A stretch of DNA of 32,000 nt from Acetohalobium arabaticum DSM 5501 (GTDB lineage: Bacteria > Bacillota > Halanaerobiia > Halobacteroidales > Acetohalobiaceae). Shown here in pieces: positions 8,175 to 24,045 of this stretch; positions within the stretch are counted from its first letter, which is position 1, and every line of letters begins with the position of its first letter. Under the pieces are notes generated by a model. It did not search any database. It saw nothing but the letters and a program-made list of their open reading frames with translations, and was not told the DNA's origin. A program made the translations under genes and the position numbers. Location of the stretch: contig NC_014378.1 of assembly GCF_000144695.1 (NCBI RefSeq), positions 376,781 to 408,780 on the forward strand, read 5' to 3'.

Positions 8175-8189
8175 CTAATAATAATATGA

Positions 8190-8215: not shown

Positions 8216-8361
8216 AAGTTTTAATTATATTTTTGCTGGAAAAGACTATAAAATAAAAACTATAGAGGAGGGATAATAAAATAAGATAGCTTTTAAATGG
8301 GATTAACAGAAAGAGTTTAAAGCGTAATGAACTAAAATTTTTAACAGAAAGGGTGAGATAT

Positions 8362-9822
8362 ATGACCATCAGAAATTCACGATCTTATTATCCCAACAAA
8401 ACTGGTTTTAGTGTTGATATGTTTACTGATGAAGAGTTAGAAGAGATTCATTTAGCTACACTAGAAATGTTATGGGATAATGGAATGCATGTTACAAATG
8501 AAGAAGCACTGGATATCTTTGCTGATGCTGGAGCTAAGGTTAATCGTAGCGAAGGGAAAGTTAGAATTCCTCCTTATATGGTAGAGGATGCTATTAAGTC
8601 CGCTCCACCTCAAATTTTAATGGCTGGACGTGACCCAGAAAATGATGTGGTAATTGGAGGTAGTCGAGTCAACTTTACGACCTTTGGAGCTGGAGTTAAG
8701 ATAGAAGACTTAGAAACAGGAGGATTAAGAGATACTCTTAAACAGGATGTAGCAGACACTGCTTTAGTAGCAGATTATCTTGATCAGATTGATATTTATT
8801 CTCATGCAGTAACAGGGGGGGACTCTCCTGATGCAAATATTGATCTGCATGATGCTGAGGCCTTCTTGAATAATACTACTAAGCATTGTCATCATATTGA
8901 TTTAACTTGTGGTGAAAATGCGAAAAAGTATTTTGAAATGGGTGCCGCTATTATGGGCGGTATGGATGAATTAAGAGAGAGACCTATTATTTCTGGTTTG
9001 GTCTGTCCACAGAGTCCTCTTGAATTGCATGGAGATGCTGCTCAGATTATTATTGAACATGCACGGGCTGGTATTCCGGTTAATGTATTATCCATGGCTA
9101 TGTCGGGAGCTACTTGTCCAGTATCTGTAGCAGGGACTTTGGTAGACCATAATGCCGAGGTGCTAACAGGAGTTATCCTAACTCAGCTAGTCAATAAAGG
9201 AGCACCAGTAATTTACGGTAGTTCTACCACGACTTTTGATTTACAGCATTCTACTGCGCCTGTAGGTGCTCCAGAACTAGGGATGTGTAATGCAGGAGTA
9301 GCTAAGTTGGCTCGTTATTACAACTTACCTAGTTATACTGCAGGTGGCTAGGCGGACAGCAAGTTATGTGACGTACAATCCGGATATGAAAAGACTATGA
9401 CTTATATGCTGCCAGCTATGGCAGGTGCTAACGTGCTTTACGGCTCAGGAATGATAGAGTTAGGAGTAACCTTCAGCTATACTCAGCTTATGATCGATAA
9501 TGAGATAGCTAGAATGGTAAGAAGAGTAATCAATGGTGTAGAAGTTAACGATGAAACTCTTGCTACTGATATAATGAAGGAGGTTGGCTGTGGAGGAAAC
9601 TTCCTTACTCAGCAGCATACATTAGACCTTATGGACCAGGAACAGTCTAGATCTGATCTCTTCGATAGAAAGATGAGAGAAGGTTGGGAGAATGACGGTT
9701 CTCAAGGTGCTGCTGAAAAAGCTACTGAAAGAGCAAAAACAATTCTTAATGACCATACTCCTGAGCCGTTAGATCAAGAGGTTCAAGATAAATTAAGTGA
9801 AATCGTAGAAAGTGTTAAGTAA
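8362..9822 (+). CDS. mttB: Trimethylamine:corrinoid methyltransferase, with the in-frame TAG (9349-9351) decoded as pyrrolysine
   Basis: Track ORFs 8353-9351 and 9397-9822 share one frame (1044 nt offset) and are separated only by the TAG. The joined protein is about 486-489 aa with ...YNLPSYTAGG-O-ADSKLCDVQSGYEK..., which matches the position of Pyl in MttB (about residue 334). ATG 8362 is preferred over GTG 8353 because of the RBS AAAGGGTGAG. Confidence 0.9.
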
Positions 9823-9982
9823 GACCGCGTTAGCAGATAGATAAACTTATATACATGTTAATTGAGGGAGATGCAGAGTCATTTCCCTTGATTAACATCC
9901 CTATATTTAAAATTTAAGTAAGTTATTCTATCCGGAAAGAAAGTTTGATTGGTTACCAATTATATTAAGGAGGTTTATAAAG

Positions 9983-10615
9983 ATGAGTCAATTTGACGAT
10001 ATTGCAGAAGCTGTAATTGATGGAGATGAGGAAAGAGTAGAAGAATTAACACAGAATCTGGTTGATGAAGGTGAAGAGCCTAGTGAGATTATTAAGGAAG
10101 GATTAGTTGCCGGTATGGATGTAGTGGGGGATAGATTTAAAGCAGAAGAGATGTTTGTTCCGCAGGTATTGATTGCGGCAGAAGCTATGGCGAAAGGAAT
10201 GGATATAGTAAAGCCTCTTTTAGCTGATGATGATACTAGTTCTGAAGGGCTTGTACTAATGGCTACAGTAGAGGATGACTTACATGATATAGGTAAGAAC
10301 TTAGCTTCTATGTTACTGGAAGGTTCTGGGTTTAATGTAATAGATTTAGGAACCGATATTCCGCCAGAAGAATTTGTAGAAGGAGTAAAAGAGCATGAAC
10401 CTGATATTGTAGGAATGTCTTCTTTATTAACTACTACAATGCCTAATATGGAGAGTACAATTGAAGCATTAGAGGAAGCCGGAATCAGAGATGAAGTTAA
10501 AATAATGGTAGGAGGCGCTCCAGTAAGTCAGGAGTTTGCTGATGAAATAGGAGCAGACGCATATGCTCCTGATGGAAGTACTGCTTCTGATTTGGCTAAA
10601 GAAATTATTGATTAA
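9983..10615 (+). CDS. mttC: Trimethylamine corrinoid protein (B12-binding)
   Basis: It has an N-terminal helical B12-binding-2 domain and a Rossmann-like B12 domain with the DxHxxG motif (EDDLHDIGKN), SSLLTTT and MVGGAP. It lies directly downstream of mttB. Confidence 0.85.
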   Translation: MSQFDDIAEAVIDGDEERVEELTQNLVDEGEEPSEIIKEGLVAGMDVVGDRFKAEEMFVPQVLIAAEAMAKGMDIVKPLLADDDTSSEGLVLMATVEDDLHDIGKNLASMLLEGSGFNVIDLGTDIPPEEFVEGVKEHEPDIVGMSSLLTTTMPNMESTIEALEEAGIRDEVKIMVGGAPVSQEFADEIGADAYAPDGSTASDLAKEIID

Positions 10616-10618
10616 TAG

Positions 10619-10648
10619 ATATAGAGGAGGAAATTTCCTCCTCTATAT
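10619..10648 (+). terminator. Perfect 30-nt palindrome (hairpin), possibly an attenuator or terminator between mttC and pylSn
   Basis: ATATAGAGGAGGAAA|TTTCCTCCTCTATAT. Only a weak T tract follows it, so terminator function is uncertain. Confidence 0.45.
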
Positions 10649-10678
10649 TTAATTAAGGCTAATGAGGGGGCGGAGAAG

Positions 10679-10963
10679 ATGGCTCAGTATACTTTTAGAA
10701 AAAAGCAGGATTTATTTTCTTTATTAAAAGAGATGAAACTGTGGCCTTCTCGTTCGGGACTTTTACATGGGATTAAATCGATAGATACTTTAGGCAATTA
10801 TGCACGCCTTACTTTATATTGTGGTCAAGAGATTACAGTAAAGAATTCTAAAAACAGTCGGGCAGCTCGCTGGCTGCGTAATACAATGATGATTGAACCC
10901 TGTACAGAATGTGAAGTGCCTGATTGGAAGATAGAGAAATATTCTAATACTACTTTTAAATAA
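10679..10963 (+). CDS. pylSn: Pyrrolysyl-tRNA synthetase, N-terminal tRNA-binding domain protein
   Basis: About 94 aa. LWPSRSGLLHGIK...NSKNSRAARWLRN...CTECEVPD matches the PylS N-domain pattern (LWMSRTGTLHKIK...NSRSCRTARAFRH...CKRCRVSD in Methanosarcina). A separate pylSn gene is typical of bacteria. Confidence 0.85.
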   Translation: MAQYTFRKKQDLFSLLKEMKLWPSRSGLLHGIKSIDTLGNYARLTLYCGQEITVKNSKNSRAARWLRNTMMIEPCTECEVPDWKIEKYSNTTFK

Positions 10964-10989
10964 ATTCAAGAGGGATGGAGGCCTGGATA

Positions 10990-11829
10990 ATGAAATTTAC
11001 TCAAGCTCAACAGCAGAGGATAATTGAACTGGATGCTGAAGGTAAATATAAAGGATATATTAAGGATAAGGAATTTGATTCTTCTAAAGAACGAGAGGAT
11101 GACTTTCAGAAAATAGAGGATGATTTAGTTAATAAGAATAAAAAAAGACTAGAAGAGTTACAAGGCCGTCATCAGCAGCCGGTATTAAGGAGAATGGAGT
11201 TTCGGTTAGTTGAATTACTCAAAGAGTCTGGATTTATGGAAGTAGTTACTCCTATAAAGTTAGCCAAAGGCCATTTAGAGAAGATGGGAATTGATGAAGA
11301 ACATTCCCTCTGGAAACAGGTATACTGGCTTGAGGAAGATAACTACTGTCTGCGTCCGATGTTGGCTCCTAATTTATATTATTTGCTGGGTTATTTTGAA
11401 AATTCATTATCTAAGCCTATTAAAATATTTGAAGTAGGTCCCTGTTTTCGCAGAGAATCCCGAGGAAGTAAACATCTTTCCGAGTTTACAATGATGAATC
11501 TAGTAGAATTAGGACCTAAGGGAGATCCCACTGAGAGATTGAAATCATTAATTGCAGAATTAATGGATTATCTAGAACTTGAATATGAGTTAGAGGAAGA
11601 GGAATCGGTGGTTTATGGTAAAACTATCGATGTAGTAGTAAACGGTATAGAAGTTGGTTCTGGGGCTGTAGGTCCCCATTTGTTGGATGAAGCCTGGAAT
11701 ATCAGTGATTCCTGGGTAGGAGTTGGTTTCGGTTTAGAGAGATTGATAATCTGTAAAGAAGAATTTGAAAGCATCAAACGGGTTGGCCGGAGTCTTATCT
11801 ATCAGGATGGAGTAAGGTTGAATATTTAA
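10990..11829 (+). CDS. pylSc: Pyrrolysyl-tRNA synthetase, catalytic (class II) domain protein
   Basis: LRPMLAPNLYYLLGY....PIKIFEVGPCFRRESRGSKHLSEFTMMNLVELG is the PylS catalytic core signature. ATG 10990 is preferred (RBS AGAGGGATGGAGG). The alternative in-frame ATG is at 10975. Confidence 0.9.
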   Translation: MKFTQAQQQRIIELDAEGKYKGYIKDKEFDSSKEREDDFQKIEDDLVNKNKKRLEELQGRHQQPVLRRMEFRLVELLKESGFMEVVTPIKLAKGHLEKMGIDEEHSLWKQVYWLEEDNYCLRPMLAPNLYYLLGYFENSLSKPIKIFEVGPCFRRESRGSKHLSEFTMMNLVELGPKGDPTERLKSLIAELMDYLELEYELEEEESVVYGKTIDVVVNGIEVGSGAVGPHLLDEAWNISDSWVGVGFGLERLIICKEEFESIKRVGRSLIYQDGVRLNI

Positions 11830-11846
11830 AAATAAGGGTGGGAATA

Positions 11847-12953
11847 ATGAAAGAAAATAATTTAGATTTACAGGTGATACTGGATAAAGCTAAAAGCGGT
11901 AGGGAACTTAAATTTGAAGAAATATATAAAATTCTAACTTTAAAAGATAAAGAGTCCCTAGAGCAGGTATTTAAAGCAGCTAGAGAGATTCGAAGAAATT
12001 ATTTTGGAAATAAAATATTTTTATATGGGTTTGTCTACTTTTCTACTTATTGTAGAAATGAGTGTACCTTCTGTTATTATCGAAAGTCAAATAATAAGAG
12101 CCCTCGCTATAGAAAAACTCCGGATGAAATTCTTCAGATTGCAGAATCTTTGATGAATTCCGGAGTTCATTTAATTGATTTAACTATGGGAGAAGATCCA
12201 GCTATATATACTGAAAATAATTTTGGAAGTTTAAAAGAAATAGCCAGCCAAATTAAAGATCAAACCAATCTGCCAGTGATGGTATCTCCAGGAGTTTTAC
12301 CGGAAGATGAGGTATTAGAGTTGGAAGATTGTGGAGCTGACTGGTATGCCTGTTATCAGGAAACTCATAATAGAGATCTGTTTACTGAATTAAGAGTAAA
12401 CCAAAGTTATGATCGGAGAATGGAAACAAAGATGTTGGCGAAGAATAATGGATTATTAATTGAAGATGGAATTCTGCTAGGAGTAGGAGAGGAGATCGAA
12501 GACCGTGTTAATTCAATTTTGACGATGAAGGAGTTAGGGGTACATCAGGGCAGAGTAATGAGTTTTGTAGCTCAGGAAGGTACTCCTATGGCTGATTCTA
12601 ATACTCCACCTCGAAGAGAAGAACTGTTGGTAATTGCTGCTTTAAGGTTAGTTTTACAGGATAGATTAATTCCTGCTTCTTTAGATGTAGATGGAATTGA
12701 GGGTTTAGAGGATAGATTGAATGCTGGAGCCAATGTTGTAACATCTTTAATTCCTCCTAGTTCTGGTTTAGCCGGTGTTTCTAATTCAACGCTGGATATT
12801 GATGAAGGCCATCGAACCGTAAATGGAGTACAGAAGGTGATTGAAGAGTTAGATTTGAAAATTGCTGCTCCAGAGTTGTATAAAGAATGGGTTGAGACTA
12901 AAAAGATGAATTTGAATCATTTAGACAGAGATGTGATTGTCTGCAGAGGATAG
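11847..12953 (+). CDS. pylB: Methylornithine synthase (radical SAM lysine mutase)
   Basis: Radical SAM CxxxCxxC motif (CRNECTFCYY), BioB-like architecture, and a position after pylS. ATG 11847 is preferred (RBS AAGGGTGGG). The alternative start is GTG 11838. TAG stop at 12951-12953. Confidence 0.9.
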   Translation: MKENNLDLQVILDKAKSGRELKFEEIYKILTLKDKESLEQVFKAAREIRRNYFGNKIFLYGFVYFSTYCRNECTFCYYRKSNNKSPRYRKTPDEILQIAESLMNSGVHLIDLTMGEDPAIYTENNFGSLKEIASQIKDQTNLPVMVSPGVLPEDEVLELEDCGADWYACYQETHNRDLFTELRVNQSYDRRMETKMLAKNNGLLIEDGILLGVGEEIEDRVNSILTMKELGVHQGRVMSFVAQEGTPMADSNTPPRREELLVIAALRLVLQDRLIPASLDVDGIEGLEDRLNAGANVVTSLIPPSSGLAGVSNSTLDIDEGHRTVNGVQKVIEELDLKIAAPELYKEWVETKKMNLNHLDRDVIVCRG

Positions 12954-12969
12954 TATGGAGGAGATAGGA

Positions 12970-14934
12970 ATGAATATTATTTTGGGCATAGATGCTGGAG
13001 GTACTTATACGGATTCTGTTCTCTATGATAGAGGAAATCAAGAATTAATTGATAAGAATAAGGCACTTACTACTTATTATAATTTAACTGAAGGAATTAA
13101 TAATACTATTACTGGATTAAAAGAAGAATGGTTTGATACAGTAGAGTTAGTAACTTTATCTACAACTCTGGCTACTAATGCTATTGTAGAGGGGAGGGGT
13201 GGAAGAGTAGGACTACTTCTGTTGGGATATGACCAGCAGCTTATGGAGCAGTTTACATTGGATGAAGAGATTCCTGGTAAAAAAAGAGAGATTATTAAGG
13301 GCAGATTTAACACTAGAGGAGAAAAAATTGAAAGTTTAGATGAAGAGGAAATAGAAAAGATAATCAAAAAGTGGCAGGGAAGTATAGATGCAGTGGCCAT
13401 TTCTGGATATATGAGTCCCCGCAATCCAGCCCATGAATTAAAGGCTAAAGGGATACTGGCTGAAATGACAGACCTGCCAGTAGTCTGCGGCCATGAATTA
13501 ACTAATAAATTAAATTCTATTCAACGGGCAACTACAGTAGCCTTAAATGCCAGCTTGATTCCTATGATCAAAGAATTGAATCAAAAAGTAAAAGAGGTTC
13601 TGCAGGTTAATGGAATTGAAGCACCAGTGATGATGGTGAAAGGAGACGGTTCATTAGTAAGCAGCCAGGCAGTTATAGATAAGCCTATAGAGACTGTATT
13701 ATCGGGACCAGCAGCCAGTACAATTGGTGCTAAGCATCTGGGGGAGGTAAATGAAGGAGTAATTGTAGATATTGGTGGTACTACTACTGATATTTCTGTA
13801 ATTAAGGATGGTTATCCTGATTTAAATTCCGATGGAGCAGTAGTAGGCGGCTGGTTAAGTAGTATAGAAGCAATTAAATTTAAAACTATCGGCTTAGGTG
13901 GAGACAGCAGAATCTATTTTAATCAGGATGGAGAATTAAAGATTGGTCCTAAAAGGGTAATTCCTTATTCGGCAGCTGCTGTAGAGCATAGGGAAGTTTT
14001 AACTGATTTACATAGAATGAGCGAAGAAAAAGTAAGCGGAGCAAGAAGAGAATTTTTGACTTTAAATAGAGCTGGGGTAGATATCGAATTCAATAAGCAG
14101 GAAGAGCAGATAATAAATGTATTAGAAACTGGTCCTAAATCAATAGCTCAGATAGTAGAAAGCATTGGTCTGGTTAGCCATAGAATTTTAGATTTAGAGC
14201 GGCTAGAAAGACTTGGAGTGATTAAAAGAATTGGTCTGACTCCAACGGATGTCTTACATGTGTTAGGGGAGTATACTATCTGGGAGGAGGAAGCAGCAGA
14301 ATTAGGACTTGAATTACTGATGAAGAGAATGAAAAGTGATAAGTTGACTTTAGCAGAGAAGTTAAAAGAAAGAGTAATCAATAAAGAAGCTAAAGAGATT
14401 ATTGCTTATTTGATCAGCCAGGATTATGAAGATTATAATCAGAACAGATGTGGATTATGTGAAAGATTAATAGAGTCCTGTTTAACTGAAGAAACCAAGA
14501 ATTTTTTATTGGATTTTAAGTCCCAGTTACCAATTGTAGCCTTGGGAGCTCCAGCCGAAGCTTATATGTCTAATTTGGATGATTATTTGGAGACAGATAT
14601 TATAGTGCCTGAAAATTATGAAGTAGCCAATGCTGTTGGTACTGCTGTAGGTAGAATCCTGATTAAACAAGAAGTGGAGATTAAGGTGAGAGGAAATGAT
14701 TATATTGTTCATGCGCCAGGCAGAAAGAAAGAATTTATTGATTTAGAGGAAGCAGTTGAGTGGGCTAAACAGAAAGGAAAGAAAGCAGCTGTTAAAGAAG
14801 CTAAGACTGCTGGAGCTAAAAGTATTGAAGTAGAAATAGAGGTAGAAAGAAGAAAAGCAGATATTAGTGCTCAAGGATCTAAAATGTTATTAGGTATTGG
14901 AGTAAAGATTATTGTTACCGGATTACCATTTTAG
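12970..14934 (+). CDS. Hydantoinase/oxoprolinase-family (HyuA-like, ASKHA ATPase) protein embedded in the pyl operon
   Basis: It has the N-terminal ILGIDAGGTYTDSVLYD...STTLATNAIVEGRG (hydantoinase A N-domain pattern) and GPAASTIGAKHLG....IVDIGGTTTDISVIKDG...IGLGGDS (hydantoinase_A pattern). ATG 12970 is preferred (RBS GGAGGAG). The alternatives are TTG 12937 and ATG 12955, both in the same frame as 12970; only the 12937 start overlaps pylB. TAG stop. Confidence 0.8.
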   Translation: MNIILGIDAGGTYTDSVLYDRGNQELIDKNKALTTYYNLTEGINNTITGLKEEWFDTVELVTLSTTLATNAIVEGRGGRVGLLLLGYDQQLMEQFTLDEEIPGKKREIIKGRFNTRGEKIESLDEEEIEKIIKKWQGSIDAVAISGYMSPRNPAHELKAKGILAEMTDLPVVCGHELTNKLNSIQRATTVALNASLIPMIKELNQKVKEVLQVNGIEAPVMMVKGDGSLVSSQAVIDKPIETVLSGPAASTIGAKHLGEVNEGVIVDIGGTTTDISVIKDGYPDLNSDGAVVGGWLSSIEAIKFKTIGLGGDSRIYFNQDGELKIGPKRVIPYSAAAVEHREVLTDLHRMSEEKVSGARREFLTLNRAGVDIEFNKQEEQIINVLETGPKSIAQIVESIGLVSHRILDLERLERLGVIKRIGLTPTDVLHVLGEYTIWEEEAAELGLELLMKRMKSDKLTLAEKLKERVINKEAKEIIAYLISQDYEDYNQNRCGLCERLIESCLTEETKNFLLDFKSQLPIVALGAPAEAYMSNLDDYLETDIIVPENYEVANAVGTAVGRILIKQEVEIKVRGNDYIVHAPGRKKEFIDLEEAVEWAKQKGKKAAVKEAKTAGAKSIEVEIEVERRKADISAQGSKMLLGIGVKIIVTGLPF

Positions 14935-14972
14935 ATTAAATATTGATCTAAAGTATATAGGGGGCGAATTAA

Positions 14973-16145
14973 GTGCGAAGAATTGCTATAATAGGTGGGG
15001 GATTACAGGGAATTGAAGTTACTTATCTGGCACAGAAGGCCGGATATAAAGTGCTGTTAATCGATAAAAGAAGGGATGTTCCGGCCTTTAATTTGGCAGA
15101 TGAGACTATAATCTGTGATATAATGAAAGAAAAGGAGAAGTTTAAGGAGAGTTTAGATGGTGTAGATTTAATTCTGCCTACTACCGAGAATAATGCAGCT
15201 TTACAGACATTAAAGAGTATGGATTCTAAGATAGACATTCCTATTGTATTTGACTGGGCTGCCTATCAGATTACTAATTCTAAAGAGAAATCAAAGAAAT
15301 TATTCAGTGAATATGATATTCCTCAGGCTGATTTATGGCCTAAAGCAGACTTTCCTTTGATCATTAAACCTAGCTCTGCTAGCGGTAGTCAAGAGGTGCA
15401 TAGGGCAGAAAATAAGCAGGAATTGGATGAAGTATTAACTAATCTGAAAGCAGCAGAAAGTGATCTAATTATCGAAGAATATCTTCCAGGACCTTCCTAT
15501 TCTATCGAGGTAATTGGCTATCAGGATCAGATATTGCCTTTGGTAACTACTTATTTAGATTTTGATGTTGATTATGACTGTAGACAGGTGATTTCCACTG
15601 ATAATTTAGAATTCATTGATACAGAACTAAGGGAGAGATTAAATGAATTAAGCAGTAAGATTGCTAAAAAGATCGGGCTCAATGGGATTATGGATCTGGA
15701 AGTGATCAGAGGCGAGAATGATATAAAGGTATTAGAAATCGATGCCCGCTTTCCCAGCCAGACTCCGATTACAGTCTTCTGGGCTACTGGTTTAAATATG
15801 GTGGAACTGTTGGTTAAGCTCTATTTAGAGGAAGGAATAGAGCCTGAATCCAAAGATTCATTCTCGGAGAATAAATCAGTCATTTATGAACATATTAAGA
15901 TGCAGAATGAAGTTTTAGAGGTCTGTGGAGAACATATTATTTCTCGAAGTACAGATTTAAGGCTGGAGAGGGACTTCTTTGGAGCTGTTGAAGCGATAAC
16001 CAATTATGGTTTTAGAAAGCAAGAATGGGTAGCTACTTTAATTTTTACTGCCGATTCTTTGGTAGAAGCATTTAAACAGAGAGATCGAACTTTAAATAAA
16101 ATTAGTGAAATAAATTCGTTATCTAAAACTAAAGTAAAGAGGTGA
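14973..16145 (+). CDS. pylC: 3-methylornithine--L-lysine ligase (ATP-grasp)
   Basis: N-terminal IAIIGGGLQGIEVTYLAQKAGYKVLLIDK, ATP-grasp body (LIIKPSSASGSQ..., LEIDARFPSQTP), and a position between pylB and pylD. Confidence 0.88.
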   Translation: MRRIAIIGGGLQGIEVTYLAQKAGYKVLLIDKRRDVPAFNLADETIICDIMKEKEKFKESLDGVDLILPTTENNAALQTLKSMDSKIDIPIVFDWAAYQITNSKEKSKKLFSEYDIPQADLWPKADFPLIIKPSSASGSQEVHRAENKQELDEVLTNLKAAESDLIIEEYLPGPSYSIEVIGYQDQILPLVTTYLDFDVDYDCRQVISTDNLEFIDTELRERLNELSSKIAKKIGLNGIMDLEVIRGENDIKVLEIDARFPSQTPITVFWATGLNMVELLVKLYLEEGIEPESKDSFSENKSVIYEHIKMQNEVLEVCGEHIISRSTDLRLERDFFGAVEAITNYGFRKQEWVATLIFTADSLVEAFKQRDRTLNKISEINSLSKTKVKR

Positions 16146-16149
16146 TAAG

Positions 16150-16956
16150 ATGACTAGATTATTTACTGATCAGATAAGCCATATTCCAGAGACAATAGAC
16201 GAATATAACCAGGAATTGAAGGATAAGACCGGGTGTGGGCTAGTAGGCTTGGCCAATCATGCTTTAGGAACTGAGTATGAAACTGCTTTTTTGGCTCAAA
16301 AGAGAGCTGCTGTTGTCCCTGTTACCGTAGGTGAAGGGATTATTCAGGGATTCAGTAAATCAGTAGCAGCTATTTTAGAATATATGGGGTTTGAGATTTT
16401 GGTTACCAATAGTTCAGATGTAAAAGGAATTAAAGAAGCATATCAAAAGAAAGCAGATATTCTTTTGATGGCCGATGATGATGAATTTATAGCTTTGAAT
16501 CTGGAAGAGAATAAATATGTTGATAATAACTGGGCTACAGCAAGGGCTTATGTGAATGCTTTGGAATTAATGGTAGGCGGATTGAAAGATAGAACAGTAG
16601 TTGTACAGGGATTAGGCCCAATAGGGAGAGAGGCTGTTAGAGCCTTAATAGAGAAGGAAGCCCGGATAAAGGTCTATGATGTTGATGAGCAGAAGATGAT
16701 AAAATTAACAGAGGAGGTTGAATCTGTAGAGGCTGTAAAGAATCCGGAACAAGAATTAAAACATAATAAATTAATTCTAGAAGCAACTCCTGTTGATAAT
16801 ACTATACAAGAGGATTATATCGATCAAAAAACATATATTTCTGCTCCTGGAGTTCCCTTAGGTGTCTGCAAAACTGCTATAAGTAGTATTGAAGATAGAT
16901 TAATTCATGATCCGTTACAGTTGGGAGTAAGCTTGATGGCGGCTGGGGTTTTATAG
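16150..16956 (+). CDS. pylD: Pyrrolysine synthase (3-methylornithyl-N6-L-lysine dehydrogenase)
   Basis: VPVTVGEGIIQGFS, ILLMADDDEF, Rossmann VVVQGLGPIGREA, LEATP, APGVPLG and DPLQLG match the PylD pattern recalled from Methanosarcina PylD. TAG stop at 16954-16956. Confidence 0.85.
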   Translation: MTRLFTDQISHIPETIDEYNQELKDKTGCGLVGLANHALGTEYETAFLAQKRAAVVPVTVGEGIIQGFSKSVAAILEYMGFEILVTNSSDVKGIKEAYQKKADILLMADDDEFIALNLEENKYVDNNWATARAYVNALELMVGGLKDRTVVVQGLGPIGREAVRALIEKEARIKVYDVDEQKMIKLTEEVESVEAVKNPEQELKHNKLILEATPVDNTIQEDYIDQKTYISAPGVPLGVCKTAISSIEDRLIHDPLQLGVSLMAAGVL

Positions 16957-17820
16957 ATGTTCTATAAATTTGTTGAAGATTTCTGAGCGGTATTTATCTT
17001 TATGATAAATAATACTGAAGTTTCTTTTAAATTCAATTCCTGAGATATTTACTTTAGTTATTTTTCCTTTTTTTCTTTCTTCTTTGGTTGAGATTTCAGG
17101 TAAGATAGAGACTCCAATGTTGGCTGCTACAGCTTTTTTAATTGCTTCAATATTATTAAAAACATGAGTGATTTGACAAGATATATTAAAATTAGCCAAA
17201 ATATTTTCAATAACTTTTCTGGTACCGCTTCCCTCTTCCCGCATGATAAAGTCTTCTTCATTGATTTTTTCCGGGGAGAGGTTTTTCCAGTGGCTCCATT
17301 CATGTTTAGTAGAACATACCAATTGAAGCTGGTCTGTAAAGAACTTTTCAACCACAATATTATCAGAACTGATAGGTCCTTCTACTAATCCTAAATCGAT
17401 TTTGTTATCTAAGACCATCTGTTCTATAACACTGGTGTTATCAATTATAAAGGGTAGGTTAATATCTTTATATTTCTGCTGGAATTCTTCTATTATCTGG
17501 GGTAATAGATAAGTGCCTATAGTCATACTGCTTCCAATTCGCAGCTGTCCTTGGTTTAGATTGGATATATCCTCCATTGCATTTTTGGTTTCATTTACAA
17601 GGTTTAGAATCCGCTTGCTATAATTAAGAAGTATTTCACCAGGGTGAGTTAATTTTAATCTTCTGTTTAGCCGGTCAAATAACTTCAAATTTAATTTATC
17701 TTCTAAGGTAGAGATAGTTTGACTGATAGCAGGCTGACTTATGTATAATTTTTTAGCTGCAGCTGACATATTTTTAGTTTCGCAGACTGTAACAAATATT
17801 TTAAGCTCTCTTAAATTCAA
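16951..17820 (-). CDS. LysR-family transcriptional regulator
   Basis: N-terminal wHTH (LRELKIFVTVCETKNMSAAAKKLYISQPAISQTISTLEDKL) and a C-terminal LysR substrate-binding domain. It is convergent with pylD, and its TAA stop abuts the pylD stop. Confidence 0.85.
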   Translation of the reverse strand: MNLRELKIFVTVCETKNMSAAAKKLYISQPAISQTISTLEDKLNLKLFDRLNRRLKLTHPGEILLNYSKRILNLVNETKNAMEDISNLNQGQLRIGSSMTIGTYLLPQIIEEFQQKYKDINLPFIIDNTSVIEQMVLDNKIDLGLVEGPISSDNIVVEKFFTDQLQLVCSTKHEWSHWKNLSPEKINEEDFIMREEGSGTRKVIENILANFNISCQITHVFNNIEAIKKAVAANIGVSILPEISTKEERKKGKITKVNISGIEFKRNFSIIYHKDKYRSEIFNKFIEHL

Positions 17821-17954
17821 TTTAATATCCTCCTTTGATTTTTGTAGATACTTAATTATACTATAATTTATGGAAAGATCTTACTTTTTATATTACCATA
17901 ATTTGAACAATAATTATACCCTAAATTGAAATTTTAGTTTGGTAGTATCTTTGG

Positions 17955-17982
17955 TTGACTTTTTTTAAATATATGATATAAT
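17955..17982 (+). promoter_or_regulatory. Sigma-A promoter candidate for tRNA-Leu
   Basis: TTGACT (17955-17960), 16-nt spacer, TATAAT (17977-17982) with an upstream TG (extended -10). Confidence 0.55.
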
Positions 17983-18008
17983 ATTAAACGTCTGAAAATG
18001 AAATAGTT

Positions 18009-18097
18009 GCCGGAGTGGCGGAACTGGCAGACGCGTAGCGTTGAGGGCGCTATGGACAGTCTTGTCCGTGTGGGTTCAAATCCCACCTCCGGCACCA
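18009..18097 (+). tRNA. tRNA-Leu (anticodon GAG), class II with a long variable arm, CCA encoded
   Basis: Acceptor GCCGGAG/CTCCGGC; anticodon stem TAGCG/CGCTA with loop TTGAGGG (GAG at 18043-18045); long variable arm TGGACAGTCTTGTCCGT; T arm GTGGGTTCAAATCCCAC. Confidence 0.9.
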
Positions 18098-18103
18098 TTA
18101 ATT

Positions 18104-18134
18104 TCTAGCCTAAGTATAAGGGCTAGATTTTTTA
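18104..18134 (+). terminator. Rho-independent terminator after tRNA-Leu
   Basis: Stem TCTAGCC (18104-18110) / GGCTAGA (18121-18127) followed by TTTTTT. Confidence 0.7.
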
Positions 18135-18439
18135 TTTACCGAATATGATTTAAAAATTGATTAGGTTTCCAATTGTGAAAAATAATATAATTTTCTAAAT
18201 TAGGAGGAATTTAATTCTAAATATCTAATTATTAGTATAAGGATTAAAGATAGTATTACAGATTATTACTATTTTTCAAAAAAGACATTAGGAGGAAAGG
18301 GGGAGTAAAAAAGTAGTAATTTTTTGAAGTGTTCAATATGAAAATTGGAGTAAATGGATTGATAAGGAAGAAGTTTATTGGTTTTGGATAAAATAAAAGA
18401 GACAGATTAAATAACTATAAAGGATAAGGTGAAATAGTT

Positions 18440-19858
18440 ATGAAAGTTAAAAACAAGTCATTTTCTGGAGGTTATACGTTTAATCTTGAGGGTAAGCCTC
18501 AGGATAGAGTTGTTGAATTAGAAACTCCTTCGAAAGTTGTTGTTCCTTTAAAGCAGGGGTTTGGCAGAGAAGTAGAACCCAATGTTGAGCCGGGTGAAGA
18601 AGTGAAAGCTGGTCAGATTATTGGTAGAGATGATGAATCTTTGTCTACTCCTATACAGGCAACGGTTAGCGGAACTGTAACAGAGATTACGGATTTACCT
18701 TCAAATAGGAGAGCAGTTGTCATTGAGTCAGATGGGACAGATGATTGGCAGCAATTAGAAGATCATTCATCTAATTGGAATAATCTATCAGCTGAAGAAA
18801 TTGAAGAATTACTTTATACTTCCGGAGTTACTTCCTTGGATAACCAGGGAATTCCGACTAGATATAAGAGTTCATCAATTTCTAAAGATGAAGTAGAGCA
18901 TATAATTATTGAAGGTACTGAGTCTAATCCTTATAACTTATCATTATCAGCTCTTTTAGAAGAAAATAAGTTATCACAGTTTGTTGATGGATTACAGATA
19001 CTCCACAAAGTCTTTCCACAGGCTAAAGTACATGTAACTATCAATGAAAATCGACAGCAATTAATTAAAGAATTAAGTGATTCTGCTGGAAATTATGATT
19101 GGATTCAGCTGTATAGTTCAGCTCCTAAGTATCCTCAAGGTAAGGACGAAATATTAGTTCCTACAATTTTAGGTGACGATTATAAAGTAAGAGCTTCTGT
19201 AGCAAGTTATGGTGTAATTGTCTTAAAAGTCCAGACTATTCTGCATATTTATGATGCTGTTGTAGAAGGAAAACCGTTGATAGAGCGGATGGTATCGCTG
19301 GCTGGAGAGGGCTGGCAGGAAAATATTCACCTTAAAGTTCGAATTGGTACTTCTATTGAAGCTATTATGAAAAATTACTCTGGTAGTGATAACCAGAGGC
19401 TTATTATTGGTAATTTATTAACAGATAAATCTATTGCAGATTACGAGATACCGGTTGACCGCACTTTTGATAATTTAAATGCGATCCCGGAACAGGAAGT
19501 AGGCGAGCCGTTTGCCTTTGCGCGTCCAGGAGCTCAAAAATATTCTTATTCAAATTCATTCTTATCTGCCTTACTTTCTGAGGTCTCTAGTAAATGTGAT
19601 ACTAATGTTCATGGAGAAGAAAGGGCTTGTATCTTCTGTGGTTACTGTGAAGATGCTTGTCCAGTTGATATAATTCCACATCTTGTTGAACGGTATACAG
19701 CTCAGAGCAGTGTCGATGAAGAGCTTATTAGATATGGTATTTTTGACTGTATAGAATGTAACTTGTGTACATTTGTTTGTCCATCTAAAAGACCTGTAGG
19801 TAAGCATATCAAGCAGGGAAAACAGTTCTTGCTCAATAAAGGATATGTAGTGAAGTAA
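18440..19858 (+). CDS. nqrA: Na+-translocating NADH:quinone oxidoreductase subunit A homolog with a C-terminal 2x[4Fe-4S] ferredoxin-type motif (RnfC-like feature)
   Basis: It has an N-terminal NqrA/RnfC barrel-sandwich region (AGQIIGRDDESLSTPIQATVSGTVTEI) and is the first gene of an ABCDEF-ordered operon. Two complete motifs are present: CIFCGYCEDACP and CIECNLCTFVCP. Confidence 0.75.
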   Translation: MKVKNKSFSGGYTFNLEGKPQDRVVELETPSKVVVPLKQGFGREVEPNVEPGEEVKAGQIIGRDDESLSTPIQATVSGTVTEITDLPSNRRAVVIESDGTDDWQQLEDHSSNWNNLSAEEIEELLYTSGVTSLDNQGIPTRYKSSSISKDEVEHIIIEGTESNPYNLSLSALLEENKLSQFVDGLQILHKVFPQAKVHVTINENRQQLIKELSDSAGNYDWIQLYSSAPKYPQGKDEILVPTILGDDYKVRASVASYGVIVLKVQTILHIYDAVVEGKPLIERMVSLAGEGWQENIHLKVRIGTSIEAIMKNYSGSDNQRLIIGNLLTDKSIADYEIPVDRTFDNLNAIPEQEVGEPFAFARPGAQKYSYSNSFLSALLSEVSSKCDTNVHGEERACIFCGYCEDACPVDIIPHLVERYTAQSSVDEELIRYGIFDCIECNLCTFVCPSKRPVGKHIKQGKQFLLNKGYVVK

Positions 19859-19913: not shown

Positions 19914-21005
19914 ATGAACGGACTTCGTAGTTTTTTTGATAATTTAAAGGAAAATGAATCACTACAGCCTGTAAAGCCCGTTATTGATGCAATGGCTGCA
20001 ATATTCTGTGGGCCAGATGAGGTTACAGCTTCTGCACCACATATTATGGATAATAATGATCTAAAAAGGTATATGTCAATGGTGATTTTAGCCTTGCTAC
20101 CTAGTACTTTTGCATCAATTTACTTTTACGGATGGCGTGCTGTATCAATTATTTTGGTATCTTATATAGTTGGTGGTTTAACGGAAGTACTCTTTGCTAT
20201 CATTAGAGGACATGAAATCGAAGAAGGATTTCTAGTAACAGGGCTTATCTTTCCTTTAGTTTTACCGCCGACGATTCCTTTATGGATGGTAGCAGTAGGG
20301 TCATTTTTTGGAGTTCTGTTTGGAAAAGAAGTTTTTGGCGGTACCGGACGGAATGTATTTAATCCAGCAATTGCAGGCCGTGTCTTTATTTCGATTGCCT
20401 TTCCAGTAGCTATGACTACTAAGTGGGCTAAACCTTTAGTTGGAGGTTTAGGAGGTTTTCTGAAGTATTCAGTTCCTGTTGATGCAATGTCGGCAGCAAC
20501 TCCGCTGGCAGTCTTTAAGACTAATGGTGAATTAGCATTCTCCACTTTTGAGCTTTTATTTGGTACAACTGGTGGTTCTATGGGAGAAACATTCCGGATT
20601 GGAATAATTATCGGTGGTCTATTCTTGATTGCTGCTAAAATAGTAGACTGGAGAATTCCAACGGCCTATTTAGGCTCTGTAGTAATCTTATCGGCTATTG
20701 GAAATCAGTTCTTACCAGGTACAGTTGCTCCACCATTATATCAATTGCTGACAGGAGGTCTCTTATTTGGTGCCTTCTTTATGGCAACTGATCCTGTAAC
20801 ATCGCCTTTTACAAAAGGCGGAACCTGGATATTTGGTATTTTTGCTGGATTTCTGACACTGATCTTTAGAAGCTTTAGTGGCTATGTTGAAGGTGTAATG
20901 TTTAGTATCTTACTGGCAAATTCAGTAACACCTTTGATCGATAGTATGGTTTTGAAGACGAAATTCAAACCAAAAGATGATGGGGTCGTTTACAATGAAA
21001 ACTAA
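19914..21005 (+). CDS. nqrB: NADH:quinone oxidoreductase subunit B (NqrB/RnfD family)
   Basis: Polytopic membrane protein with an NqrB-type N-terminal extension (..PVIDAMAAIFCGPDEVTASAPHIMDNNDLKRYM..), an FMN-attachment-like SAAT motif and FMATDPVTSP. ATG 19914 is preferred (RBS AGGAGGG). The track start is TTG 19884. Confidence 0.8.
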   Translation: MNGLRSFFDNLKENESLQPVKPVIDAMAAIFCGPDEVTASAPHIMDNNDLKRYMSMVILALLPSTFASIYFYGWRAVSIILVSYIVGGLTEVLFAIIRGHEIEEGFLVTGLIFPLVLPPTIPLWMVAVGSFFGVLFGKEVFGGTGRNVFNPAIAGRVFISIAFPVAMTTKWAKPLVGGLGGFLKYSVPVDAMSAATPLAVFKTNGELAFSTFELLFGTTGGSMGETFRIGIIIGGLFLIAAKIVDWRIPTAYLGSVVILSAIGNQFLPGTVAPPLYQLLTGGLLFGAFFMATDPVTSPFTKGGTWIFGIFAGFLTLIFRSFSGYVEGVMFSILLANSVTPLIDSMVLKTKFKPKDDGVVYNEN

Positions 21006-21621
21006 TACTAATTTAGAACAGGAAGTGCAAACTAAGGATATTCTGTTGGGTAAGGCTAAGATGATAATCTTTATGTTAATCTTGGGTTTGGTTGCAGCTG
21101 CTTTATTAGCAGGATTGGGTTCTTATACTAAACCTCTTGTGGAGAAGAATAAAGAATTAAGAACAATGCAGAAAGTTCTTGAATCTATTAATGTGGATTA
21201 TTCAAGTGATAATTTAACAAAGGTCTTTAAAGAAAAGGTCGAGGTTGTAAATGAAGGCGAATATAAATTTTACAAGACCAAAGAAGGCGAAGTTGCTTTT
21301 AAATTTGAAGGTGAAGGGATTTGGGCTCCAATTGTTGGTTTTGCAGCCCTTGACTCTGATATGGAAACCCTAGAAGGGATTTCAATAATGTCCCAGGGAG
21401 AGACTCCTGGTCTTGGCGGTCGAATTACAGAAGATTGGTTTCTTAATCAGTTTAAAGGCTTAAAACGCAATCCAAAAATTGTAGTTTTGAAAGCAAGTAA
21501 AACAGCTGATAATCCTAATGAAGTAGATGGGATTGCTGGAGCAACGTTGTCTGGTAAGGCTTTACAGAAGATTTTAAATAAGAATATTGAAGTGGCTTTG
21601 CAGAAACTGGAGGTGAACTAA
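20995..21621 (+). CDS. nqrC: NADH:quinone oxidoreductase subunit C (NqrC/RnfG family, FMN-binding)
   Basis: Single N-terminal TM helix and an FMN-binding domain with the flavinylation-type motif DGIAGATLSG. The start is ambiguous (ATG 20977 or 20995); either overlaps the nqrB stop. Confidence 0.75.
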   Translation: MKTNTNLEQEVQTKDILLGKAKMIIFMLILGLVAAALLAGLGSYTKPLVEKNKELRTMQKVLESINVDYSSDNLTKVFKEKVEVVNEGEYKFYKTKEGEVAFKFEGEGIWAPIVGFAALDSDMETLEGISIMSQGETPGLGGRITEDWFLNQFKGLKRNPKIVVLKASKTADNPNEVDGIAGATLSGKALQKILNKNIEVALQKLEVN

Positions 21622-21622
21622 T

Positions 21623-22315
21623 TTGAATCTGCTCAAAAAGTTATATTATAAGATAAAATATACTAGAGTATTTGCTCTGTTGTATAAGGGAATTTGGCAA
21701 GAGAATGATCTTTTGATAGCTTCTTTAGGCATCTGTTCTGCCCTGGCTGTAACTAATCGAGTAGCAAATGGAATTGCTATGGGGCTTGCAGTTACTTTCG
21801 TTATACTAGCTTCTTCAGTATTAACTGCAACTATTAGAGATTATATTCCAAAACGGGTAAGAATAGTTACCTATGTAATCTTTATTTCTACTTTTGTAGT
21901 TATAGTAGACCAATTTCTTAAAGCATTCTTTCCAGCAATTAGTCGAGCATTAGGTGCCTATGTAGGTTTAATTATAACTAACTGTTTAATTATGGGTCGA
22001 GCTGAGTCATTTGCTTCTAATAATCCAGTTGATTCTTCCATTGTAGATGCTTTTGCTCATGGTATGGGTTATACTATTGTCTTAATTATAGTATCTGCAG
22101 TAAGAGAAGTTCTTGCCTTTGGAACTATATTACAGATACCAGTTGTTGGAGAAGCCTGGACTAACTGGGTAGTAATGGCCATGGCTCCTGGAGGCTTCTT
22201 TGTTTTAGCAGCATTGACCTGGGTTGTCCGGGAGATTCAGATTTATGAAGAGGAAGAGGAATCTCCAAATAGTCGAGCTGAGCTTGATGCTTCTGAGAAA
22301 GTGTTGTCAGTTTAA
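21623..22315 (+). CDS. nqrD: NADH:quinone oxidoreductase subunit D (NqrD/RnfE family)
   Basis: Polytopic membrane protein with LGICSALAVT and ITNCLIMGRAE motifs typical of NqrD/RnfE. TTG start after RBS GGAGGTGA. Confidence 0.8.
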   Translation: MNLLKKLYYKIKYTRVFALLYKGIWQENDLLIASLGICSALAVTNRVANGIAMGLAVTFVILASSVLTATIRDYIPKRVRIVTYVIFISTFVVIVDQFLKAFFPAISRALGAYVGLIITNCLIMGRAESFASNNPVDSSIVDAFAHGMGYTIVLIIVSAVREVLAFGTILQIPVVGEAWTNWVVMAMAPGGFFVLAALTWVVREIQIYEEEEESPNSRAELDASEKVLSV

Positions 22316-22368: not shown

Positions 22369-22953
22369 ATGCCTGAGTCTCTAAGTATTTTTATAGCAGC
22401 TATAACATCCCATAATCTAGCTTTGACTTACATTTTAGGGATGTGTCCGATGTTAGGGGTGTCAAAGAATCTTGATACGGCTGTTGGTATGGGAATATCA
22501 GTAGCTTTTGTAGTAGTGGTAACTTCTATGGTTAATTGGGGTATATATAATTTAATTTTAGTACCAACTGGAACTGAGATTTTAAATTATGTTGTCTTTA
22601 TTGTGGTTATAGGAGCAAGTGTACAGCTTTTAGAGATGATTTTAGAGAAATTTCTTCCTGCTTTATATAGAGCATTTGGAATCTTTTTACCGCTTATTAC
22701 GGTAAACTGTGTTGTACTTTCCATTTCACTCTTTATGACATTACGTAATTATGATTTTATAACTACACTTGTTTTTGCACTTGGTTCAGCAATCGGTTGG
22801 TTAATAGCAATTGCGATTGTTGCTGCCATAAGAGAGAAGCTTAAATTGACGGGAGATGTACCAAGAGGTCTGCAAGGACCAGGTATCGTTATGATAATAC
22901 TTGGCATAGTAGCCCTTGCATTTATGGGCTTCGGAGGGATGGTGAGTGTCTAA
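22369..22953 (+). CDS. nqrE: NADH:quinone oxidoreductase subunit E (NqrE/RnfA family)
   Basis: Polytopic membrane protein with LGMCPMLGVS and ITVNCVVL motifs typical of NqrE/RnfA. Confidence 0.8.
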   Translation: MPESLSIFIAAITSHNLALTYILGMCPMLGVSKNLDTAVGMGISVAFVVVVTSMVNWGIYNLILVPTGTEILNYVVFIVVIGASVQLLEMILEKFLPALYRAFGIFLPLITVNCVVLSISLFMTLRNYDFITTLVFALGSAIGWLIAIAIVAAIREKLKLTGDVPRGLQGPGIVMIILGIVALAFMGFGGMVSV

Positions 22954-24045
22954 ATGAATATTCAACCAATCTATATATTAGCTTCAATTTTCTTTGGGGT
23001 TGCTTTCGTGTTGGCGATTGCTGATTTCTTATTGACCAGTAATGAGCAGCAGGTAATTAACATTAATGATGAAGAGTATATTCCGGCTGGAGATGGAACA
23101 TTGTTGGAAGTTTTAGGTGAAAATGGCATCTTCATTCCTGCAGGTTGTGGTGGAAAAGCAAGCTGCGGTCAATGTAAGGTTACAGTAAAAGAAGGCGGCG
23201 GTGATATACTACCTACAGAAGAACCTTTCCTCGACGAAGAAGAAAGAGAAGAAGGAGTCAGGCTTGCCTGTCAGGTAAAAGTCAATGAAGATATGAAACT
23301 TGAGCTTGATGAATCATTACTGGATATAGAAGAATATACTGCTCGAGTAGCTGAGGTGAGGAGTGTAACTCCTACAGTTAAACATGTTAGATTAGAAATG
23401 ATAGAACCAACAGATATTGAGTTTGAAGCTGGGCAGTATGCACAGATTATGATACCTGGTTTTGAAGAATATCGGGCTTACTCTATAGCTTCACCGCCGA
23501 GTATGGCCAGAGAAGAGAATGCTTTACAGTTTACAATTAAATTGGTACCCGGCGGTCTCTGTACTAGCTGGGTTCACTTTGCTATGGAAGAAGGTGATAT
23601 CGTTAAGTTCACTGGCCCCTTCGGTCACTTCTATCTCGATGAAGAATCTGATAGAGAGATTATTCTGATCGGTGGAGGAGCCGGTATGGCACCTATGAGA
23701 GGAATTCTTGAGCGGCTAGATGAATTGGGGATGCCCCGGCCGACAAGATATTACTTTGGTGCCAGAAACTCAGATGAGCTTTACTATGGAGACAGATTCG
23801 CAGAACTTGAAGAGAAGTATGATAACTTTGAGTATATACCTGCACTGTCTGACCCTACTCCGGAAGACAAAAAGAATTGGGATGGTCCTACTGGATTTGT
23901 TACTGATGTACTGGATGAGAGAGAAGGATCACTGGAGAATGCAGAATCCTATCTCTGTGGACCACCGCCTATGCTTGATGCAGCTGAACGCATCTTAGTT
24001 GATCATGGAATGCCGGAAGAAAAGGTAATGTTTGATAAATTCTAA
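22954..24045 (+). CDS. nqrF: NADH:quinone oxidoreductase subunit F (2Fe-2S ferredoxin, FAD and NADH binding)
   Basis: N-terminal TM helix, plant-type ferredoxin Cys pattern (CGGKASCGQCKV...LACQ), FAD motif RAYSIAS and NAD-binding IGGGAGMAP. Its presence identifies the operon as Nqr rather than Rnf. Confidence 0.85.
   Translation: MNIQPIYILASIFFGVAFVLAIADFLLTSNEQQVININDEEYIPAGDGTLLEVLGENGIFIPAGCGGKASCGQCKVTVKEGGGDILPTEEPFLDEEEREEGVRLACQVKVNEDMKLELDESLLDIEEYTARVAEVRSVTPTVKHVRLEMIEPTDIEFEAGQYAQIMIPGFEEYRAYSIASPPSMAREENALQFTIKLVPGGLCTSWVHFAMEEGDIVKFTGPFGHFYLDEESDREIILIGGGAGMAPMRGILERLDELGMPRPTRYYFGARNSDELYYGDRFAELEEKYDNFEYIPALSDPTPEDKKNWDGPTGFVTDVLDEREGSLENAESYLCGPPPMLDAAERILVDHGMPEEKVMFDKF

Follow-up and report, generated by a model that had tools for sequence, protein, structure and literature searches.

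A six-gene Nqr-type operon in Acetohalobium arabaticum whose subunit A keeps two RnfC-like [4Fe-4S] motifs

The 32,000-nucleotide (32-kb) stretch of Acetohalobium arabaticum DSM 5501 DNA analyzed here, referred to as the window, contains an operon related both to the NADH:quinone oxidoreductase that translocates Na+ (Na+-NQR, Nqr) and to the Rnf complex. Its six genes are compactly arranged on the + strand in the order A-B-C-D-E-F, as in Na+-NQR, and a hairpin directly downstream of the last gene is the probable end of the operon. Every related locus that spans A-E retains their order, and the sixth gene lies downstream of E there as well. The genes and the hairpin are as follows.

18440-19858, + strand: subunit A, an RnfC/NqrA homologue of 472 residues, identified by its open reading frame (ORF) and by Pfam, NCBIfam, PDB and Foldseek
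19914-21005, + strand: subunit B, NqrB/RnfD family, 363 residues, with an ATG at 19914 (the mechanical ORF start is a TTG at 19884)
20995-21621, + strand: subunit C, NqrC/RnfG, FMN_bind
21623-22315, + strand: subunit D, NqrD/RnfE
22369-22953, + strand: subunit E, NqrE/RnfA
22954-24045, + strand: subunit F, NqrF type, 363 residues
24062-24107, + strand: terminator-like hairpin with a 16-bp stem and a T run, directly 3' of F

Subunit A consists of an N-terminal barrel-sandwich domain, a NuoF-like domain, an NqrA-type loop, and a C-terminal ferredoxin domain with two [4Fe-4S] motifs. Pfam recognizes RnfC_N, Complex1_51K (58 bits), and a Fer4 dicluster in it. Alignment to Azotobacter vinelandii RnfC, Escherichia coli RsxC, and Vibrio cholerae NqrA locates five diagnostic segments, in which FMN stands for flavin mononucleotide.

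18833-18859, + strand: SLDNQGIPT, degenerate, at the position of the RnfC FMN-phosphate loop (G[LM]GGAxFPT)
18911-18937, + strand: EGTESNPYN, degenerate, at the position of RnfC N[GA]xECEPY (V. cholerae NqrA has TAMDTNPLA)
19499-19615, + strand: NqrA-type loop of about 40 residues (354-392), VGEPFAFARPGAQKYSYSNSFLSALLSEVSSKCDTNVHG, homologous to V. cholerae NqrA R330-N379
19628-19663, + strand: first [4Fe-4S] motif, CIFCGYCEDACP, with Cys397, 400, 403, and 407
19748-19783, + strand: second [4Fe-4S] motif, CIECNLCTFVCP, with Cys437, 440, 443, and 447

An earlier note on this DNA had claimed two complete RnfC-type [4Fe-4S] motifs at 19628-19783, and they are indeed there. The + strand translates to CIFCGYCEDACPVDIIPHLVERYTAQSSVDEELIRYGIFDCIECNLCTFVCP, residues 397-448 of subunit A, within a segment (residues 393-450) that Pfam assigns to a 4Fe-4S dicluster domain (Fer4_9, Fer4_17, Fer4_7, and others). 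The pattern C..C..C...CP matches only twice in the six-frame translation of the window, both times in subunit A, with a chance expectation of 0.0006 from Cys and Pro frequencies. All eight cysteines are invariant in the 120 listed homologues described below, which are 44-71% identical, and complete in all 96 representative clusters of the same type, down to about 27% identity. Subunit A is therefore predicted to bind two [4Fe-4S] clusters. In V. cholerae NqrA, the segment LALCTFVCPGK keeps the last two cysteines of the second motif and none of the first motif survives, in line with the earlier description of Vibrio NqrA as holding a remnant of the second motif; a 2025 review describes NqrA as cofactor-less. 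The alternative that many characterized NqrA proteins carry the same motifs thus finds no support in the only structurally characterized member, which lacks six of the eight cysteines.

Outside the ferredoxin domain, subunit A is a mosaic. The loop SLDNQGIPT has the same length as the RnfC FMN loop, with its glycines replaced by acidic or polar residues, and is homologous to V. cholerae NqrA F131-K138 (FRTRPFSK). Together with the altered ECEPY site, this bears out the statement that no RnfC-type NADH/FMN motif is found in the protein. By these alignments, subunit A has lost the RnfC FMN/NAD(H) motifs but not the NuoF-like domain itself, as Complex1_51K is still detected. The remodeled pocket is conserved among relatives in its new form, in the motifs PLKQGFG, SGxxSL[DG]xxGIPT, GSEPYNLS, and PKYPQG. 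The NqrA-type loop (...EPFAFARPGAQKYSYSNSFLSALL...) follows the NuoF-like part and precedes the first Cys motif; among the aligned proteins, only subunit A and V. cholerae NqrA have it, and RnfC and RsxC have a linker of 3-17 residues. In V. cholerae, the corresponding loop intertwines with the NqrB N-terminus and puts hydrophobic residues into the membrane (PMC9325719). Model scores place the protein nearer to RnfC: it passes the NCBIfam rnfC model (TIGR01945, 269.7 against a cut-off of 245.95) and stays below that of nqrA (TIGR01936, 159.8 against 321). RnfC is also the best match in the PDB sequence search (E 7.6e-52, with V. cholerae NqrA at 2.4e-20) and in Foldseek, where RnfC 7zc6_C gives a template modeling (TM) score of 0.69 (E 6.5e-30) and NqrA 7xk3_A one of 0.62 (E 1.1e-23).

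Subunit A is not a one-off, but a member of a large clade of anaerobes. A protein search returns 1490 matches at E<=1e-20, 120 of them listed, and a scan using one genome per species confirms relatives in 207 species. They come from Bacillota among other phyla, the nearest being Halobacteroidaceae, and comprise Halanaerobiales (Ca. Frackibacter, 70% identical) as well as Dethiobacter, Syntrophomonadaceae, and Tissierellales. Others belong to Endomicrobia, to Planctomycetota (including metagenome-assembled genomes (MAGs) of anammox bacteria), to Phycisphaerae, Lentisphaerae, Latescibacterota, Armatimonadota, and WOR-3, and many to Omnitrophota and Spirochaetota. An exhaustive search of representatives at 50% identity gives 703 matches at E<=1e-30, the best 150 of which were classified. 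Ninety-six are of the same type as the window protein, with all eight cysteines, a loop of at least 38 residues, no GxGG[AG] in any of the 96, and ECEPY lost. A further 37 are of RnfC type, with all eight cysteines, a linker of 7-17 residues, GxGG in all 37 (the criterion that defines this class), and ECEPY in nearly all; the remaining 17 are fragments or other proteins. A partly lost Cys motif is also seen, in protein P0211, which retains seven of the eight cysteines. This split indicates that loss of the FMN motif and gain of the NqrA loop go together. Database names for the homologues vary: NCBI calls them '4Fe-4S dicluster domain-containing protein', and JGI calls them NqrA or, less often, RnfC.

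Of the other five subunits, Pfam assigns B to NQR2_RnfD_RnfE, C to FMN_bind, D and E to Rnf-Nqr, and F to Fer2, FAD_binding_6, and NAD_binding_1. Subunit F has a transmembrane helix, a plant-type [2Fe-2S] site (Cys65, 71, 74, and 106; 23146-23271), and flavin adenine dinucleotide (FAD)- and NAD-binding domains. Its best NCBIfam model is nqrF (TIGR01941, 276.2, cut-off 295), followed by BenC at 182.5, with no match to any Rnf model; in the PDB, V. cholerae NqrF leads with 210 bits and an aligned N-terminus, the next match reaching 159. Residues 33-96 of subunit B align with residues 26-87 of V. cholerae NqrB, its N-terminal extension, and no further ferredoxin-type Cys motif that could mark an RnfB occurs in any frame of the 32-kb window. 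The earlier identification of the operon as Nqr-type, on the grounds of its three-domain NqrF, the missing RnfB, and the NqrB-like extension, is thus sound. The scores of the remaining subunits are graded. NCBIfam gives nqrB 286.5 (cut-off 349.9) and rnfD 284.5 (cut-off 207.05, passed) for B, nqrC 101.4 (cut-off 144) and rnfG 63.3 (below cut-off) for C, nqrD 192.2 (cut-off 244.85) and rnfE 169.8 (below cut-off) for D, and nqrE 194.1 (cut-off 247.55) and rnfA 193.8 (below cut-off) for E. PDB searches favor NqrB (207 bits; RnfD 158-189), NqrC (51-65; RnfG 26-37), and NqrE (166; RnfA 139-154), and for D they favor RnfE (143 and 137; NqrD 134). Judged by its NCBIfam scores, the complex lies between the Nqr and Rnf families.

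Cofactor and quinone-site motifs are recognizable in B and C.

19980-20003, + strand: VIDAMAAI, in the N-terminal extension of B
20166-20195, + strand: IVGGLTEVLF, quinone-pocket motif of B, with the pocket Phe at 20229-20231
20481-20501, + strand: DAMSAAT, FMN-attachment motif of B
21526-21546, + strand: DGIAGAT, flavinylation motif of C

For the intramembrane [2Fe-2S] cluster, D provides Cys38 and Cys121, and E provides Cys26 and Cys114. D also carries the NqrD-like signatures LGICSALAVT and VGLIITNCLIMGRAE, and E the NqrE-like motif ITVNC. Within the clade, the flavinylation threonine is kept in 72 of 73 B subunits (Thr206) and in 63 of 67 C subunits (Thr190, with Ser in the other 4). The cysteines are kept in all 67 D subunits at both positions and, in E, in 63 of 63 (Cys26) and 62 of 63 (Cys114). 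Judged by sequence, none of the cofactor ligands common to the Rnf and Nqr cores is missing from B, C, and D/E. The window also has acidic residues at the positions of V. cholerae NqrB-D397, NqrD-D133, and NqrE-E95, for which mutagenesis in Vibrio is reported to show a role in Na+ uptake. An antisense ORF of 127 residues also lies inside the subunit B gene (20162-20545, - strand), and a similar one is found in 54 related loci; it tracks the conserved Gly/Pro-rich B coding sequence on the opposite strand and is taken to be a shadow ORF, not a gene.

Phylogenetic analysis used the ancient D/E paralogues, which root each other. A joint neighbor-joining tree (179 columns, 200 bootstraps) was built from the window, 21 clade members, V. 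cholerae NqrD/NqrE as the sole Nqr reference, and four Rnf references: RnfE/RnfA of Clostridium tetanomorphum, Acetobacterium woodii, and A. vinelandii (from PDB alignments) and E. coli RsxE/RsxA. The clade joins NqrD in 170 of 200 replicates (85%) and NqrE in 195 of 200 (97.5%), whereas Nqr joins Rnf in 20 and 0 of 200, respectively. A smaller run of the tree agrees. Subunits D and E therefore do not fall within Rnf beside an unrelated NqrF: they group with NqrD and NqrE, and F is specifically NqrF-like. As for the earlier proposal that the complex is an Rnf-to-Nqr intermediate, the character states support it, while its phylogenetic side is covered by this thinly sampled tree in place of a full phylogeny.

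Among known systems, the closest is V. cholerae NqrABCDEF (7XK3, 8A1U). The two share the A-F gene order, an NqrF with transmembrane helix and [2Fe-2S], FAD, and NADH domains, the NqrB extension and GG/Phe pocket, the B/C flavinylation threonines, the four D/E cysteines, the NqrA membrane loop, and the grouping of D/E with NqrD/NqrE in the rooted tree. They differ in that both [4Fe-4S] motifs are complete in the window A subunit, against two of eight cysteines in the cofactor-less Vibrio protein, and in that F and B of the window lack Vibrio-specific insertions (F 177-239, B 87-132). The window complex would also likely use menaquinone rather than ubiquinone, in a host that is a strict anaerobe. 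With Rnf (C. tetanomorphum 7ZC6, A. woodii 9ERI, A. vinelandii 8AHX) it shares the RnfC fold, two CxxCxxCxxxCP motifs, and the B-E core. Unlike Rnf, it has no RnfB, an NqrF input, and no FMN loop or ECEPY motif; it has the NqrA-type loop and the B extension, both absent in Rnf, and its D/E subunits branch with Nqr. The NQR of Segatella (Prevotella) bryantii, compared here by its published description, is likewise a menaquinone-reducing Nqr of a strict anaerobe and of an older type according to the 2025 review, but it has a canonical, cofactor-less NqrA. The NqrBCDEF clusters of Clostridium ultunense and Pseudothermotoga lettingae (PMC5924567) are also Nqr-like, from strict anaerobes, with an unknown acceptor and a non-canonical A; they were reported without subunit A, whereas in the window A is present with its cluster motifs.

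Several features of the clade suggest that the electron acceptor is a quinone. The ubiquinone site of V. cholerae NqrB is formed by G140, G141, F159, and the N-terminal helix AH-II residues L26, A29, and L33 (Hau et al. 2023, PMC10643135). The first three correspond in the clade to B G97 (72 of 73), G98 (67 of 73), and F116 (69 of 73), and the AH-II residues to B V33, A36, and I40. The N-terminal extension is missing from C. tetanomorphum RnfD, whose residues at the GG position are Cys-Val. Gene context adds to this picture. In an Endomicrobia locus (L084), the gene directly 3' of F passes the menA model TIGR00751 (134.5, above the cut-off of 102.15) and is followed by a polyprenyl diphosphate synthase gene (15532-16458 and 18480-19385), and an Omnitrophota locus (L086) has the same menA-type and polyprenyl synthase pair at 16911-18784. 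Overall, and in several phyla, 26 of 80 loci have a polyprenyl diphosphate synthase gene next to the operon, and at least 10 have one of UbiA/MenA type there. Genomes usually carry only a few polyprenyl synthase genes, which makes 26 such adjacencies very unlikely to be due to chance. Menaquinone as the likely acceptor fits the view of the 2025 review that Nqr began as a menaquinone reductase.

A histidine kinase and response regulator pair often lies between the downstream menA and polyprenyl synthase genes. In the Omnitrophota locus, three ORFs lie between nqrF and menA (15517-16929), encoding a 41-residue peptide, a PqqD-like chaperone, and a radical SAM/SPASM protein that matches mycofactocin maturase best, at 126.9 bits and below cut-off. 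The set resembles a cassette for a peptide-derived cofactor, and a related radical SAM gene occurs near the operon in 5 loci.

The sixth gene varies within the clade in a way that bears on the electron donor. About 27 loci have a full NqrF. In 24 others, mostly from Spirochaetota, the gene encodes only 149 residues, a transmembrane helix and a [2Fe-2S] domain (nqrF model positions 5-124), and is always followed by NuoE-, NuoF-, and NuoG-N-like genes. In seven further loci, a stub of this type is fused to a NuoE-like domain, and in one (L057) to NuoE- and NuoF-like domains, giving a protein of 759 residues. Two unrelated NADH dehydrogenase modules thus occur on the same transmembrane [2Fe-2S] anchor, which suggests that NADH is the donor throughout. 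The short-F members would combine an Rnf/Nqr-type core with a complex-I-type NADH module, an arrangement for which we found no description in the literature. The module resembles the NuoE/NuoF/NuoG N-module of complex I and HydBC-type diaphorases; it is present in sister sub-clades such as those of L085, L064, and L057 and absent from the window operon, which has the full NqrF.

Loci of the short-F/NuoEFG type include L064 (14381-20500), L085 (14446-17854), and L057 (14892-17171), together with L011, L034, L044, L048, L066, L069, and L075. A HydABC hydrogenase downstream of the short sixth subunit was considered and rejected: in L085, the NuoG-like protein has only 203 residues, with Fe-S domains alone, and is followed by a histidine kinase, which points to a diaphorase-type module (the spirochete loci were partly checked). 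In 13 spirochete loci, a small secreted protein with three CxxCH heme motifs is encoded just upstream of A (e.g. L064 9416-9922), and in that region L085 also carries ResB/CcsA cytochrome c maturation genes and a larger multiheme protein (4794-9496). At 1-1803, roughly 8 kb upstream of its short-F operon, the same locus contains the end of a second Nqr-type operon, made up of D, E, and a full-length NqrF; in the tree, the E subunit of this second operon falls close to V. cholerae NqrE. About 3.6 kb separate the B and C genes in L074, a Ca. Anammoxibacter MAG (12764-16411), and the operon genes of L078 are spaced more widely than usual.

On balance, the product of the operon is probably a redox pump of six subunits that belongs to the Nqr lineage, an early-type NADH:menaquinone oxidoreductase whose subunit A carries redox-active clusters and traits between those of RnfC and NqrA. 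Electrons would pass from NADH to FAD and [2Fe-2S] in F, to the [2Fe-2S] cluster of D/E, to FMN in C, FMN in B, and riboflavin in B, and finally to menaquinone, with export of Na+. Because this path would enter the core at its D/E end, it requires an acceptor more positive than NADH. The clusters of A would lie adjacent to riboflavin, as in RnfC, and be redox-active; they could relay electrons to a quinone sitting in A where RnfC binds FMN, or they could act as a side store while quinone is reduced at the B site. The RnfC proximal cluster lies 11.7 Å from riboflavin (PMC9588780), so electron exchange between riboflavin and the A clusters is to be expected, provided that the fold is conserved.

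The relay variant connects with an older puzzle. In V. cholerae NqrA, the segments L32-M39 and F131-K138 are labeled by a photoreactive ubiquinone and form a cavity about 30 Å from riboflavin, a distance described as 'too long' for electron transfer (PMC9325719). In the clade, the two A clusters would span this gap, and it can be put forward tentatively, as a plausible route, that electrons pass from riboflavin via cluster 2 and then cluster 1 to quinone bound in the cavity that once housed FMN. A broader proposal is equally speculative: the clusters of A would wire riboflavin to quinone, the clade would be the surviving stem of Nqr, the Vibrio NqrA cavity would be a vestige left after cluster loss, and the core would be modular with NuoEFG.

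A rival explanation is that the A clusters are structural relics. Canonical NqrA functions without any cofactor, the V. cholerae-type quinone residues of the B site are conserved, and menA adjoins the operon in other members. Yet the eight cysteines persist in 96 clusters down to about 27% identity while the neighboring ex-FMN loop varies freely, and, given a conserved fold, clusters at the RnfC distance from riboflavin could hardly escape exchanging electrons with it. We regard the relic explanation as rather unlikely.

Less likely still is that A serves another terminal acceptor, its ex-FMN pocket binding a phosphate-free flavin, a soluble redox protein, or a small molecule, so that the complex would be an NADH:X pump. 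Conservation of the pocket motifs in a new form does suggest a ligand site over decay, and no quinone-synthesis genes lie nearby in the window. However, once menA, polyprenyl synthase, and the genes of the NADH module are set aside, no candidate partner recurs beside the operon, and the NqrB-type quinone pocket is conserved.

An Rnf variant whose A binds FMN and NAD(P)+, working as a Na+-coupled transhydrogenase with NAD(P)H at F or as a reverse, ferredoxin-reducing enzyme, is highly improbable: subunit A does pass the rnfC cut-off, has a Pfam-detectable Complex1_51K fold, and ranks RnfC above NqrA in PDB sequence and fold searches, but the GxGG loop and ECEPY are absent in all 96 same-type representatives, the window has no RnfB, D/E group with Nqr, and NADH to ferredoxin would be uphill in the exporting direction, as judged from the shared Rnf/Nqr pathway. 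Loss of the FMN loop and ECEPY throughout the clade led us to reject an NAD(P)H transhydrogenase or a functional RnfC, and NADH-to-ferredoxin transfer (reverse Rnf) was set aside because electron entry at the D/E end appears to be the exporting direction in both Rnf and Nqr.

Some observations weigh against an early Nqr-type menaquinone reductase with redox-active clusters in A. None of the six subunits reaches an Nqr equivalog cut-off in NCBIfam. The neighbor-joining tree has only four Rnf references and one Nqr reference, and the monophyly of the clade relative to Vibrio Nqr (sister or nested) has bootstrap values of 117 and 67 of 200. The AlphaFold model of subunit A has a mean predicted local distance difference test score of 81.9, with only 50-76 in the ferredoxin domain. 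No menA or polyprenyl synthase gene is found in the 32-kb window or in the closest locus (L004). The quinone status of the host rests on a single entry in a review table, which lists A. arabaticum as Rnf-positive (a separate Rnf), with a Na+ ATP synthase, no cytochromes, and an uncharacterized quinone. Lastly, direct quinone reduction at the B site would leave the A clusters without an obvious job, and their strict conservation could be structural.

Upstream of the operon lies a tRNA gene.

18009-18097: tRNA-Leu(GAG), with an 11/12 sigma-70-like promoter at 17955-17982 and its own terminator at 18104-18127

The tRNA gene sits between a divergent LysR-family gene (16951-17820, - strand) and the operon, and it is the sole RNA family matched by Rfam in the operon's 5' region.

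The window also contains a complete pyrrolysine system (8103-16956). It begins with a tRNA-Pyl with a CUA anticodon (8103-8174), followed by an mttB gene with an in-frame stop at 9349-9351 and a PYLIS element (9349-9448, 84 bits), and by the corrinoid protein gene mttC (9983-10615). Next come a pylS-like gene (10975-11829), a pylB-like radical SAM gene (11838-12953), pylC (14973-16145), and pylD (16150-16956), with a hydantoinase/oxoprolinase-like ORF of 665 residues (12937-14934) between pylB and pylC. A SelD-like (AIR synthase-related) gene at 4011-5048 has an in-frame TGA (4056-4058) within TAGGG*AAKIG and probably encodes a selenophosphate synthetase that contains selenocysteine; just upstream of it, at 2936-3529, is a gene for a TusA-DsrE fusion. 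An IS605-family OrfB/TnpB-type transposase gene (6394-7695; OrfB_IS605 and Cas12f1-like TNB) is located between the genes for a UTRA-domain regulator and tRNA-Pyl.

The clade bears on how Nqr arose. Reyes-Prieto et al. (2014) derived Nqr from Rnf through loss of RnfB, then decay of RnfC, then recruitment of NqrF, and the 2025 review places its origin in Bacteroidota. In our literature search, which left most subscription journals outside its scope, no Fe-S-bearing NqrA and no operon combining NqrF with an RnfC-like subunit is described. The evidence supports an apparently undescribed Nqr variant, widespread and conserved, whose function is inferred from sequence and gene context. Its present-day members already have NqrF, the membrane loop of NqrA, and the quinone pocket of NqrB, and they still keep the cluster motifs of RnfC, which points to an order of events that began with loss of the FMN site and ended with loss of the clusters.

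The mixed traits of the clade also explain the inconsistent gene names given by annotation pipelines and genome papers. The anammox genome paper whose MAGs correspond to L074 and L078 annotates the genes as both Rnf and Nqr, notes 'nqrA missing', and settles on Rnf, the confusion expected from a clade with an Fe-S-bearing NqrA. Finally, with this clade the Nqr lineage extends into Omnitrophota, Spirochaetota, Planctomycetota, and Bacillota, and the clade offers a concrete test for the dispute over the role of NqrA and its ubiquinone-labeled cavity, which lies too far from riboflavin.

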